A stretch of 63,233 nucleotides of DNA from Caldisericia bacterium. GTDB lineage: Bacteria; Caldisericota; Caldisericia; JAAYUI01. The stretch is taken from the NCBI GenBank assembly GCA_017992555.1, contig JAGOOK010000004.1, forward strand, positions 1 to 63,233. Direction: 5' to 3'. A program made the position numbers and the translations under genes. Positions within the stretch are counted from its first letter, which is position 1, and every line of letters starts with the position of its first letter. Below are positions 15,606 to 25,806 of this stretch, piece by piece. The notes beneath the pieces are model-generated. The model was not told the origin of the DNA and made no database searches. It saw nothing but the letters and a program-made list of their open reading frames with translations.

Positions 15606-16823
15606 ATGAACTTTTCCTGGATAATAGAAAAAGAATTGATGATCTCGTCTGCTCCAGAGAATATACAAATGCTTTCAAGGCTCAGAGACACCGGCATAAA
15701 AGCTGTGGTTTCACTTTCCCAGTTACCATTCACTGACAAAGATTTTGAAGATCTGGGGCTTTTCAATCTCAAGCTCCAGATTCCGGAAGATAAACCGCCA
15801 ACACTTGAGCAATTGAGGGAATTCATTTTCTGGTCCGGATTTATGAACAAACACGGATTACCCTTGCTGATTCACTGCCAGGAAGGTTATGAACGTTCTG
15901 CAACACTGGCTGCGTGCTATCTTGCAGTGTTTGCGAACATGACGGCAAACCAGGCAATCGAGGAAGTGCGTGCCATAAGGGGTGACAACTCAATTACATT
16001 TCCCCACAATCAGGAATTTGTCAACGAGTGCGAGTATGTGAAACCACTTTTAACAAACACTTCCGATAACTCTTTCTATGAAGCAAAGCTCCTCATTGAT
16101 CTGCTCAGAAGGCGCTGCCCCTGGGACAGGGAGCAGACCCCTGATAGCATGATGCAAAACCTTCTTGAAGAAACTTATGAGGTCTGGGAAGCAATCAAAC
16201 AGAAAGACATGGCTCACATAGAGGAAGAGCTGGGAGATATTCTGCTCCAGGTGCTGATGGTCTCAAGGATGCTCTCGGAAGAGCAATTATTTAGCGTTGA
16301 AGATGTGATTGTCACAATGCAGGAAAAACTTGTTTACAGACACCCGCATGTTTTTGGGGAGATCAAGACAAAAACGGCCGATTCTGTTCTTGACCAGTGG
16401 AACAGCCTCAAGAAACAGAAAAAAGACAATGGATCGATCAAAGACATCCCGTCTGGTCTCCCGCCACTCGGCAGGGCCGAAAGAATAATGGCCCATGCAA
16501 AGGACCTTGGATTTGACTGGGACAAAACCGAAGGGGTTCTGGAAAAACTAGACGAGGAAGTCAGTGAGCTCAAGGAAGCCATCCAGATCAAAAACAAGGG
16601 CGAGATTGAGAATGAACTTGGAGACGTTTTCTTTGTTTTATTAAATCTGGCCAGATTTCTTGATGTCGGCCCCGAAGTGGCACTTTCAAGAACGCTGGAC
16701 AAATTCATAAAAAGATTTGAAAAGATAGAGAACCATTCAAAAGAAACCGGAAAACCGATTGGCCATATGACTTTGGGGGAAATGGATGAAATCTGGAATA
16801 AGGCCAAAAAAGACCATCAATAG
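15606..16823 (+). CDS. mazG: Fusion: N-terminal dual-specificity (CX5R) phosphatase domain + MazG nucleoside triphosphate pyrophosphohydrolase
   Basis: HCQEGYERS at aa 90-98; then CPWDREQT, EETYEV, EELGDILLQ, RHPHVFG and second EEVSEL/ELGDVFF MazG motifs. Confidence 0.9.
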   Translation: MNFSWIIEKELMISSAPENIQMLSRLRDTGIKAVVSLSQLPFTDKDFEDLGLFNLKLQIPEDKPPTLEQLREFIFWSGFMNKHGLPLLIHCQEGYERSATLAACYLAVFANMTANQAIEEVRAIRGDNSITFPHNQEFVNECEYVKPLLTNTSDNSFYEAKLLIDLLRRRCPWDREQTPDSMMQNLLEETYEVWEAIKQKDMAHIEEELGDILLQVLMVSRMLSEEQLFSVEDVIVTMQEKLVYRHPHVFGEIKTKTADSVLDQWNSLKKQKKDNGSIKDIPSGLPPLGRAERIMAHAKDLGFDWDKTEGVLEKLDEEVSELKEAIQIKNKGEIENELGDVFFVLLNLARFLDVGPEVALSRTLDKFIKRFEKIENHSKETGKPIGHMTLGEMDEIWNKAKKDHQ

Positions 16824-16882: not shown

Positions 16883-17077
16883 GTGAGTTGCAAAAAAACA
16901 AATAGCAACAGGTGTAATTGCACCTATGAACCATGCGAGCGCAAATACAAATGCTGCGAGTGTCTGTCATTCCACAAATCACAAAACGAGCTCCCGGCAT
17001 GTTATTTCACTGCAGAGGAAGAAAAAACCTACGACCGTTCCATAGGTTTTTTCTGTAAAAACCATGTCAAAATTTAA
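16883..17077 (+). CDS. Small Cys-rich protein, DUF6485-like
   Basis: [15 protein letters not shown]....ELPACYF....EKTYDRSI pattern; GTG start. Confidence 0.75.
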
Positions 17078-17780
17078 TCCTTCTCCCTCAATGAATGAAG
17101 GCACATTCGCATCAGAGGTCATCAACAGGTCTCTTCTTTATGGAATTCTAGGCTATCTTCCAGAAGAAATCTGCAATGTTGTTGTTCTCGATGGACCAAA
17201 ACAGACCCAGATGTCACTCATCCTTGAAAATGCCGGCTACAAGGTGGCCAGGATATGCCCGAAAAAGGATGATGATCCAACATGCATAGCTTCAACAACC
17301 GAGGAAATAGACGGAGAAAGTTTCGGAGTTGTGATCTGTCCTGGCTGGCTCTCTGACAATGATGATCCTGAGGAAATATCGAGAGAAGCAATGAGACTTC
17401 TGGTTCAGGGTGGTCTCTTCTTTGGTAGTGTGCCTGGAAGGTTTGCGGCCGCAGTCGACTGCGTCCCTCAATCAATAAGCAACGCGTCAAGCATTGCAAA
17501 CGGAATAGACGAAATCTAGTGGTGGGGTACCAAAGAACTTTTTACCCCAAATGATATTGCTTGTGAGCTCGAGGCCATCGGTTTTGAGGTTGTCGACTTT
17601 TATGGATGGGAGCACGCTCTGACAAAACTACCTGGCGAAAAGCTTTCTGCAACAGACTGGGATGAGGGCTTTTTTGAAGACTTTTTAGAGCTGGAATTCA
17701 GGCTTGCCCAGGAAAGATCAATCCTTGGCATGGCCCCAACAATCCAGTTTGTGGCAAAAAAACCAAACCCAGAACCATAA
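17064..17780 (+). pseudogene. Class I SAM-methyltransferase-fold ORF (238 codons) interrupted by in-frame TAG at 17517-17519; pseudogene or read-through gene
   Basis: Frame stays open 86 codons after the TAG (WWGTKELFTPNDIACELEAIGFEVVDFYG...ELEFRLAQERSILGMAPTIQFVAKKP) to TAA at 17778-17780, just before a terminator; no separate start for the 3' half. Confidence 0.7.
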
Positions 17781-17799: not shown

Positions 17800-17824
17800 A
17801 AAGGCCCTCCATTGGAGGGCCTTT
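17800..17824. terminator. Intrinsic terminator between convergent operons
   Basis: AAAGGCCCTCC-ATT-GGAGGGCCTTT with A-run upstream. Confidence 0.85.
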
Positions 17825-17844: not shown

Positions 17845-18624
17845 TCACGGAACATTTATCATCATTCTTTCAATCTTTTTGCATTGCCCTGTTTCTCTGT
17901 CAATGTCGAGCAAAACGGCACAAAATCTTACATCACCTTCTGCAACCTCAAACCTTGCCCGTCTTGCACTAATCATTTTGGAGATCGGCGCGCTGGGTTC
18001 CATGCCAATAACTGATTCATGGGGGCCAGTCATCCCTACATCGGTAATAAAACCAGTTCCACCCTTGAGTATTCTCTCATCAGCCGTTTGAACGTGTGTA
18101 TGGGTACCTAAAACCGCAGAGACTCTTCCATCAAGGTAGATGCCAAGGGCTTGTTTTTCGCTCGTTGCTTCGGCATGGAAATCGATTAGGATGGCTTTTG
18201 TTGTGCTCCTTAGCTCCTCAACAATCCTGTCAGCGACCCTGAACGGGCAATCGATGGGCGTCATGAAGACCCTGCCCTGGAGACTCACCACTGCAAGCGT
18301 TCCAGCAAGTCCTTCCAGCACAAAATGGCCACTGCCCGGGTTCCCTGGAGGAAAATTGGCAGGCCTTGCCAGAAGGCGCTCGTTTTCAAGCAATTCATCG
18401 GCTTCCTTCTGGTCATAAAGATGATTGCCAAGCGTTATTCCGTGGATACCAGCAGCCCTGAGTTTGTCTGATATATCAGGGGTGAGGCCAAACCCACCGG
18501 CCGCATTCTCACCATTTGCCACAACAAAATCGACACCGTATTGCTTTACAAGGCCCGGGACAACGGCCTCAACGGCCTTTCTTCCAGGCTTACCAACGAT
18601 GTCTCCAATGAAGAGGACTATCAT
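17845..18624 (-). CDS. ymdB: YmdB/TIGR00282 metallophosphoesterase
   Basis: FIGDIVG, NGENAAGG, TLGNH, DFHAEATSEK, GTHTHVQTAD, TDVGMTG; downstream of rny. Confidence 0.93.
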   Translation of the reverse strand: MIVLFIGDIVGKPGRKAVEAVVPGLVKQYGVDFVVANGENAAGGFGLTPDISDKLRAAGIHGITLGNHLYDQKEADELLENERLLARPANFPPGNPGSGHFVLEGLAGTLAVVSLQGRVFMTPIDCPFRVADRIVEELRSTTKAILIDFHAEATSEKQALGIYLDGRVSAVLGTHTHVQTADERILKGGTGFITDVGMTGPHESVIGMEPSAPISKMISARRARFEVAEGDVRFCAVLLDIDRETGQCKKIERMMINVP

Positions 18625-23452: not shown

Positions 23453-25806
23453 TTCTTCCTCCGTGAGGATTGGTGTTTTATGGCAATCTTGATGACGTCA
23501 AAAACATTCTCCACAAAAACTATTTTTATCTCGGAGAGCACGTCTGTCGGTATTTTTTTACTATCAGCTTCATTGTCCTTTGGCAAGATGACAGTTTTAA
23601 TACCATAGCGGTGCGCGGCCAGTACTTTTTCCTTTACTCCACCAATTGGAAGGACAGATCCCCTTAGGGTTATCTCTCCAGTCATTGCAACATCTGATCT
23701 GACAGGCAAACCTGAAATTGCAGAGACAAGCGAGGTTATAATACCAATTCCTGCAGATGGGCCATCTTTGGGGATTGCACCTTCAGGGAAATGTATGTGT
23801 ATGTCGGTTTTGTCAGCGCTGTAAGATTCTGGAAGGCCAAGCTCTTTTCTGTGGCTCCTCACAAACGACATGGCGGCCGTTGCAGATTCCTTCATTACAT
23901 CGCCAAGCTGACCAGTGAGTATAAGTTTCCCCGAGCCCTCCATCAGTGTGCATTCGATGAAGAGGACTTCACCGCCATTTTCTGTAACGGCCAGTCCCGT
24001 GGCAATTCCAACCTCGTCCTTTTTGAGCTGGACGTCAGATTTGAATATCGGAACATCAAGATAATCTGAAAGCTTTTCCGGAAGTATGGTTATTTTCTCC
24101 AGCTTGCTGGTTTCAACCTTGTTTTTGGCCACCTTGCGCATGATTGAAGCAATCCTGCGCTCAAGAGTTCTGAGGCCAGCTTCTCTGGTGTAAAGTCTTA
24201 TCACGTCATCTATTGTTTCATCTGGCAATTCCACATCATCTGCAGTAAGGCCATTTTCCTTTAGCTGCTTTGGTATGAGGAACTTCTTTGCAATATGGAC
24301 TTTGTCATACTGGGTGTAGCCAGGGATTGTGATGAGCTCCATCCTGTCGAAAAGGGCTCTGGGAATAGTGTGGGAGACATTGGCGGTTGTCACAAAAAGT
24401 ACGCCTGACAAATCATAGGGAATTTCCAGGTAATGGTCGGAAAATGCAGTATTTTGTTCAGGGTCAAGCGCCTCAAGTAATGCTGCTGTAGGGTCTCCCC
24501 TGAAATCCAATCCTACCTTGTCAATCTCATCTAGCAGGAAAACGGGGTTTGAAGAGCCAGCAAATTTTATCCCCTGGATTATTCTGCCGGGCAAGGCACC
24601 AACGTAAGTACGCCTGTGCCCTCTTATCTCGGCTTCGTCCTTTATTCCGCCAAGCGAAACCCTTACAAATTTTCTGCCCATTGCTCTGGCAATCGATTTC
24701 CCAAGCGAGGTTTTTCCAACACCTGGAGGACCGACAAGGCAAAGGATGGGGCTTTTTGCTTTTGGGGACAACTTTCTGACTGCAAGATACTCGAGGATTC
24801 TTTCCTTGACCTCATCAAGATCGTAGTGGTCCTCGTCAAGTATTTGTTTTGCCTGCTTGATGTCTATGCAGTCCTCGGTTTTTACTTCCCAGGGGAGCGA
24901 GAAAATCCAGTCCAGGTAGTTTCTTACAACGGCCGCTTCTGCTGCCATTGAGGGCATCTTTTCAAGCTTGTCCAGCTGCTCGTTTACGGCCTCCACAACA
25001 TAGACAGGAAGGTTTGATCTTTCCTCAAGCTTCTTTCTGAATTCCGATATGTCGTTTGAAAATTCAGAGCTGGACTCACCAAGTTCTTTCTGGATGGCCT
25101 TGAGCTGTTCCCGCAGGTAAAATTCTTTTTGGGTCTTGTCTATCTTGTTGCGTACTTCAGATTCTATCTTGTTCTGGATATTAAGGACTTCAAGCTCGGA
25201 GCTGACAAGATCAATGAGCCTGACGAGCCTGTCTTTGGTTGGTGCTATTGAGAGGATTTCCTGCTTTTCCGATATCGAAAGACCGATGTTTGCGGCAACA
25301 ATATCAACCATCTGGTTTGGCTCTTCAACTTCAGAGAGACCAAGGAGCATTTCTGGGAGGAGCCTCTTGTTTATCCTGAAATATTCATCAAATTTCCCGG
25401 TAAGCACCCTCATGAGCGCCTTGATTCCAGGATTTTTTTCTAAAGTTTCGTTAAAAGGCTCGACTATTGCTTTGGTAAATTTTTCACCATCAACAAATTT
25501 CTTTATCTTTACTCTTCTGATGCCTTCTGCAATGACCCTGAGATTTCCATCCGGCATCTTTTGCTGGAGTTGCAATATCTCGCAGCCAACACCAACATCA
25601 TAAAGATCGCTAGCGCCAGGCTCGTCAACCATTTCAGATTTTTGTGTGCAGACAACAATCATCCTGTCATTGGCATAAGCCTCTTCAACCGCAGCTACTG
25701 ACCTTTCCCTGCCAATAATCAGGGGGACAGTCATGCCGGGGAACATGACAAGATTCCTCAATGGCACAAAAGGAGCTTCAGCAAGTTCCCATTTTGACCC
25801 AGGCAT
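23449..25806 (-). CDS. lon: ATP-dependent protease La (LonA)
   Basis: LON N-domain, GPPGVGKTS, RGHRRTYVGA, LLDEIDK, PKDGPSAG catalytic Ser. Confidence 0.98.
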   Translation of the reverse strand: MPGSKWELAEAPFVPLRNLVMFPGMTVPLIIGRERSVAAVEEAYANDRMIVVCTQKSEMVDEPGASDLYDVGVGCEILQLQQKMPDGNLRVIAEGIRRVKIKKFVDGEKFTKAIVEPFNETLEKNPGIKALMRVLTGKFDEYFRINKRLLPEMLLGLSEVEEPNQMVDIVAANIGLSISEKQEILSIAPTKDRLVRLIDLVSSELEVLNIQNKIESEVRNKIDKTQKEFYLREQLKAIQKELGESSSEFSNDISEFRKKLEERSNLPVYVVEAVNEQLDKLEKMPSMAAEAAVVRNYLDWIFSLPWEVKTEDCIDIKQAKQILDEDHYDLDEVKERILEYLAVRKLSPKAKSPILCLVGPPGVGKTSLGKSIARAMGRKFVRVSLGGIKDEAEIRGHRRTYVGALPGRIIQGIKFAGSSNPVFLLDEIDKVGLDFRGDPTAALLEALDPEQNTAFSDHYLEIPYDLSGVLFVTTANVSHTIPRALFDRMELITIPGYTQYDKVHIAKKFLIPKQLKENGLTADDVELPDETIDDVIRLYTREAGLRTLERRIASIMRKVAKNKVETSKLEKITILPEKLSDYLDVPIFKSDVQLKKDEVGIATGLAVTENGGEVLFIECTLMEGSGKLILTGQLGDVMKESATAAMSFVRSHRKELGLPESYSADKTDIHIHFPEGAIPKDGPSAGIGIITSLVSAISGLPVRSDVAMTGEITLRGSVLPIGGVKEKVLAAHRYGIKTVILPKDNEADSKKIPTDVLSEIKIVFVENVFDVIKIAIKHQSSRRKK

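Follow-up and report, generated by a model that had tools for sequence, protein, structure and literature searches.

An in-frame TAG in a methyltransferase-like gene of Caldisericia is very probably a natural nonsense allele

The in-frame TAG that interrupts a methyltransferase-like gene in a Caldisericia genome is very probably a natural nonsense (loss-of-function) allele that arose from CAG, making this copy an incipient pseudogene of a dispensable, Caldisericia-specific gene. The window analysed here, 63,233 nucleotides in length, is contig C2 of a 1.5-Mb draft metagenome-assembled genome (MAG) that is ~70% complete and consists of 60 contigs. An ORF of 151 aa with an ATG start occupies positions 17064-17519 of the forward strand and closes with TAG at 17517-17519. 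Beyond this codon the same frame stays open for 86 sense codons and reaches TAA at 17778-17780, and the intact (read-through) protein has 238 aa. This layout, first given in a preliminary description of the region, was reproduced from the ORF list and its translation, and the terminator that was said to follow the TAA directly corresponds to an 11-pair hairpin at 17800-17824. The features of the locus are as follows.

16883-17077, forward strand: gene for a 64-aa Cys-rich DUF6485 protein, overlapping the start of the methyltransferase-like gene by 14 nt (Pfam PF20095, ortholog loci)
17064-17516, forward strand: 5' part of the methyltransferase-like gene, codons 1-151, predicted beta1-beta5 and a degenerate motif I 'LDGPKQ' (ORF list, AF2 model, weak Methyltransf_11 match)
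17517-17519, forward strand: nonsense codon TAG (codon 152), with CAG (Gln) ancestral and T at 17517 derived (same-genus DNA alignment, metagenome contigs)
17520-17780, forward strand: 3' remainder, codons 153-238 and TAA, with a predicted helix 162-172, beta6 175-182, helices, and beta7 226-233 (protein alignment, model, 2avn alignment, start scan)
17523-17549, forward strand: 7-bp inverted repeat within codons for W-G-T...T-P (fold test, ortholog comparison)
17800-17824, either strand: bidirectional intrinsic-terminator-like hairpin (terminator scan, giving a stem of 11 pairs, seven being G-C, and a T-rich tail on each strand)

The terminator-like hairpin sits between the methyltransferase-like gene and a convergent minus-strand gene (17845-18624) and serves both. 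On the other side of the locus, the ORF list includes a 405-aa protein (15606-16823, forward strand) directly after mfd, a fusion of MazG with an N-terminal part that resembles dual-specificity phosphatases (HCQEGYERS).

Comparison with relatives identifies the base change. None of the 10 orthologs from the same Caldisericota family has an internal stop. In a DNA alignment, all three same-genus orthologs (93-98% amino acid identity) have CAG (Gln) at codon 152, and the window differs from this codon by one C>T transition at position 17517. The aligned codon in other genera is AGT, TCG, CAC, ATG or AAT. Members of the family thus have Q, S, H, M or N at residue 152, a variable position inside a low-confidence linker (residues 128-156) of the structural model. 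Outgroup comparison of these sequences indicates that CAG is the ancestral state and TAG the derived one. The preliminary description had proposed examining orthologs for conservation of the TAG and of the hairpin behind it; close orthologs have CAG and the hairpin decays among them, a pattern that does not bear out recoding. The 3' part shows no decay yet, with 0 non-synonymous and 10 synonymous differences from the nearest ortholog, and against the orthologs overall the 3' half shows 0-3 non-synonymous versus 10-26 synonymous differences, a strongly purifying pattern; since some CAG strains have exactly the same sequence here, the branch almost wholly predates the mutation, and these ratios are uninformative on selection after it.

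Both alleles were found in public metagenomes. We surveyed Logan contigs from 20 runs of nine studies (P1-P9), comprising digester, wastewater and sludge metagenomes; the calls come from assembled contigs, which drop minor variants, and they therefore describe presence between samples rather than frequency within a sample. T at 17517, giving TAG, occurs in 10 runs from four studies (X1-X4 in P1, X5 and X18 in P2, X6-X8 in P3, and X10 in P5). The other 10 runs, from six studies, carry C and hence CAG (X9 and X15 in P4; X11, X14 and X16 in P6; X12 and X17 in P7; X13 in P8; X19 in P2; X20 in P9). The TAG allele is therefore present in 4/9 studies holding the sequence, on contigs with word depths of 4.5-22. 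Run X4 matches the window without a difference across 19 kb and probably belongs to the source study; P1 therefore lends no independent support, whereas P2, P3 and P5 do. Recurrence of T in independent assemblies shows that TAG is a real segregating allele and not a read or assembly error.

The backgrounds of the two alleles are near-identical. Several contigs differ from the window by 1-3 bases in 717-1200, and in the C-carrying contigs of X9 and X11 position 17517 is the sole difference over 568-717 bases. At a synonymous site further downstream, 17774, T at 17517 is paired with A in the window, X4 and X10 and with G in X5-X8, while C is paired with G in X12 and with A in X11 and X20. All four combinations thus occur, a pattern that suggests recombination, with recurrent mutation the less likely source; the phase is deduced from de Bruijn-graph contigs, which are interrupted between 17517 and 17774. 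As the TAG allele is common and TAG and CAG each occur with both A and G at 17774, the TAG allele seems not to be brand new, and this would be easier to explain if it cost little or nothing.

Other irregularities were seen in the same contigs. In X12, which represents a CAG-allele strain, a low-depth contig (5.9x) lacks one G at 17695, a possible second, independent frameshift lesion; it has no confirmation in the sister run X17, where contigs break at 17686-17715. Contigs also break at 17513/17514 in X5-X8, X12, X17 and X18, and the depth of the shared 31-mer there (window 17484-17514) is about double that on either side. This depth jump is a sign that a related strain or species is present in these samples and departs from the window at 17515, as G003 does (ACC CAG), and it indicates that several close Caldisericales populations share the same reactors. 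Elsewhere in the window, a short segment at 25076-25113 recurs, with identical loose ends at left and right, in contigs from runs of five studies (X4, X5, X6, X9, X10 and partly X12), which suggests a repeat or the boundary of a mobile element found elsewhere in these metagenomes.

The intact protein belongs to a small family. Its homologs are confined to one family of Caldisericia, where they occur in 11/41 related genomes, and among 5.8 billion proteins 10 clusters match, the sole source name being 'hypothetical protein'. Pfam Methyltransf_11 scores 17.6-18.8 bits against a cut-off of 21.2, the match covering residues 74-120, and it reaches E <= 0.1 in just four of the 11 family members; no member of the family reaches the gathering threshold of any Pfam methyltransferase model. 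NCBIfam has no match for this protein or for the Cys-rich protein upstream. A profile built from the 11 orthologs matches PDB entry 2avn (Thermotoga maritima TM1389) over residues 33-233 with E = 5e-4.

An AlphaFold (AF2) model from the 11-sequence alignment (pTM 0.80) predicts a seven-stranded class I methyltransferase fold. Strands beta1 to beta5 are placed at residues 38-41, 60-64, 74-76, 89-95 and 117-125, beta6 at 175-182 and beta7 at 226-233; the low-confidence linker at 128-156 connects beta5 with the helix before beta6. The modelled seven-stranded sheet ends in a C-terminal beta6-beta7 hairpin, the arrangement expected of a class I methyltransferase. A Foldseek search with this model against the PDB gave 174 matches at E <= 1e-3, and the best 50 of the 174 are all methyltransferases or related enzymes; 2avn, CmoM and many SAM-dependent methyltransferases match at probability 1.00 (best E = 1.5e-9, TM 0.62). 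The class I methyltransferase fold of the intact protein is thereby confirmed at the level of the predicted model, and the methyltransferase likeness noticed earlier from the letters alone holds for the structure, although the Pfam scores stay below gathering. The glycine-rich motif I (E/D-x-G-x-G-x-G) for SAM binding is absent from the family, whose consensus is 'vLDGpKQ' with G44 alone invariant. Because this loop is degenerate and the Pfam scores are sub-threshold, SAM binding and catalysis are at most putative.

One C>T change at 17517 turned Gln codon 152 (CAG) into TAG, and the TAG and intact CAG alleles now segregate in populations of this Caldisericales species in anaerobic digesters and wastewater. 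Translation of the TAG allele would stop at codon 151, leaving a product that would lack the pre-beta6 helix, beta6, the helical lid and beta7, along with the conserved C-terminal blocks. In the protein alignment the invariant or best-conserved residues of the family fall after the stop (W153, E158, P162, LEAxG, GW, W199, E211 and TIQF). Given the loss of beta6, beta7 and these conserved blocks, we infer that the truncated product is most likely non-functional; its loss would be tolerated, and the gene is probably dispensable in digester and wastewater habitats. That the allele is so frequent and sits on more than one haplotype is mildly unusual and is compatible with neutral loss. There is a small chance that the TAG allele is instead no neutral accident, standing at intermediate frequency on more than one haplotype because loss is advantageous in some reactors or because enough unprogrammed UAG read-through occurs at a tolerant linker.

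Leaky, unprogrammed termination as an explanation in its own right is improbable. In that case near-cognate decoding of UAG, for instance by tRNA-Gln, would give sufficient full-length protein, and the allele would be near-neutral and able to spread. The wide occurrence of the allele on at least two haplotype backgrounds would fit, as would the still intact 3' half and the position of the stop, since the linker there is variable and modelled with low confidence and might accept whatever residue is inserted. Basal read-through of UAG in bacteria without a suppressor tRNA is low, however, typically about 1e-4 to 1e-3, and the locus has no conserved stimulatory structure. ARAGORN found no suppressor tRNA and, in this ~70% complete genome, detected tRNA-Gln(UUG) and not tRNA-Gln(CUG). 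We also looked for leakiness of TAG across the genome. At least 85 codons are open in frame after the stop in 13.1% of long ORFs ending in TAG, compared with 11.6% for TAA and 9.5% for TGA; in this crude test, which is dominated by same-frame neighbour genes, there is no TAG-specific excess, and general leakiness was rejected.

It is very unlikely that this is a split gene with two separately produced parts that come together as an active protein. The break would be well placed for this, falling in the modelled flexible linker between beta5 and the pre-beta6 helix, but none of the 10 orthologs is split. A scan of the 3' part found no in-frame ATG, GTG or TTG between the TAG and Met223 (17730), and no Shine-Dalgarno-like sequence ahead of codon 223. 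The C-terminal part therefore cannot be made separately, and the earlier remark that the 3' half has no start of its own is upheld as far as that methionine.

Programmed recoding, by pyrrolysine insertion or by read-through of UAG stimulated by the stem-loop, is extremely unlikely. What speaks for it is the arrangement itself, an in-frame TAG followed by an open frame, with a 7-bp stem starting 3 nt downstream. The inverted repeat TGGGGTA (17523-29) / TACCCCA (17543-49) on which the preliminary description built is present, but its proposed role as a recoding signal is not sustained. The 66-nt region folds at -11.7 kcal/mol, compared with -11.25 +/- 2.77 for shuffled sequences (z = -0.16), and 77/200 shuffles fold at least as well. 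The stem is unchanged in L002, an ortholog that carries CAG; in L003 and L004 it has lost pairs with no compensating changes, and the seven orthologs of other genera lack it. With a fold no better than random, no conservation and no covariation, the hairpin was rejected as a signal, and the 7-bp inverted repeat is a coincidence of the coding sequence.

The machinery for recoding was not found either. The search for pyrrolysine genes used models of PylS and PylD (PylB and PylC were outside it), and the positive control, Methanosarcina acetivorans, scored over the cut-offs. In the genome and 10 relatives, the best PylS scores (PylS_Cterm, TIGR02367) were 20-33 bits against a cut-off of 178, which are cross-matches of ordinary class II aminoacyl-tRNA synthetases, and the best PylD scores (TIGR03911) in the same 11 genomes were 18-25 bits against 150. 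ARAGORN found no tRNA with a CUA anticodon among the 33 tRNAs of the whole genome, a result that is suggestive only at ~70% completeness. Such incompleteness weakens the absence of pyl genes and tRNA-CUA in this genome alone, which is mostly offset by the 10 relatives, the majority of them 90% complete or more. Of the pyl genes and the CUA tRNA that the preliminary description proposed to look for, neither pylS, pylD nor the tRNA thus came to light. Titles and abstracts of literature naming both Caldiserica and pyrrolysine do not report pyrrolysine use in Caldiserica.

TAG is also a common true stop in this genome, closing 161/689 long ORFs (23%), as had been surmised from a single gene in the window. 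Together with Gln (CAG) at this codon in orthologs and sister strains, the lack of conservation of residue 152, and a protein that is unrelated to the Pyl-containing methylamine methyltransferases and closest in structure to class I SAM methyltransferases, this argues against recoding. With CAG in the close orthologs and no PylS, PylD or tRNA-CUA found, the read-through or recoding that headed the preliminary description is not supported; among the four options it listed, recent nonsense mutation is the one favoured by the CAG orthologs and by the two alleles in metagenomes, and read-through, pyrrolysine and sequencing error are not.

The only unusual tRNA that ARAGORN reported in the genome is a tRNA-Sec(UCA). 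Its gene lies on another contig (C10:129385-129726), and immediately behind it comes a frame of 217 codons that contains a single in-frame TGA. This TGA is also present in the ortholog of G003 and is lacking in that of G001, and the frame is probably a selenoprotein gene beside its tRNA.

A sequencing or assembly error in the MAG, for which one could cite a single-base difference in a draft of this completeness and contig number, is almost inconceivable, since 10 runs from four studies each gave the T in an assembly of their own.

The gene directly upstream of the nonsense allele is conserved with its partner. The 64-aa Cys-rich protein matches PF20095 (DUF6485) with E = 7e-5 and 23.7 bits against a cut-off of 24. 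In 10/10 orthologous loci (L012-L021) from three genera, the methyltransferase-like gene is directly preceded by a Cys-rich ORF of this kind (CNCTY...CC.C...H...ELPACYF), read in another frame. DUF6485 and the methyltransferase-like gene form a conserved pair of two uncharacterised genes, and the pairing offers a modest lead to the function of DUF6485. A fusion of the Cys-rich and methyltransferase-like proteins in other genera, prompted by a 306-aa ORF in L018, was considered and rejected; at each of the 10 loci the Cys-rich protein is read in a different frame, and the 306-aa ORF is an alternative frame that happens to be open.

The outcome for the TAG is mainly a negative one: an in-frame TAG with a stem behind it in a 'methyltransferase' mimics pyrrolysine use or read-through, yet it is very probably an ordinary nonsense allele. 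In the annotation of this MAG, the gene should accordingly be labelled a pseudogene or a disrupted allele, and neither a 151-aa protein nor a recoded one. Its intact counterpart represents a small Caldisericia-restricted family with a predicted class I methyltransferase fold and a degenerate SAM loop.

The intact protein resembles TM1389 (2avn) and E. coli CmoM (8joz), which are small class I SAM-dependent methyltransferases, in its predicted seven-stranded fold and in having the same C-terminal beta6/beta7 hairpin, but identity to them is only 13-25%. Motif I also differs, with 'LDLGGGTG' (a GxGxG loop) in 2avn and 'DG(P/E)xx' with a single conserved Gly in the family described here. The likeness to the pyrrolysine system (pylTSBCD; MtmB, MtbB, MttB) consists of an in-frame UAG in a gene named 'methyltransferase'. 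PylS, PylD and tRNA-CUA are missing here, orthologs have CAG at an unconserved position, and the predicted fold is the Rossmann fold of class I SAM methyltransferases, in contrast to the TIM-barrel fold of MttB. The nearest parallel is with natural nonsense polymorphisms and incipient pseudogenes in bacterial populations, in which a premature stop arises by one transition and the sense codon is kept in sister strains and species. As in known incipient pseudogenes, the downstream frame is still intact because the mutation is recent compared with the time since the species diverged. Nothing essential sets this case apart from typical nonsense polymorphisms; the TAG allele is frequent (about half of the studies) and has more than one flanking haplotype, and a natural nonsense allele is an already known kind of feature.
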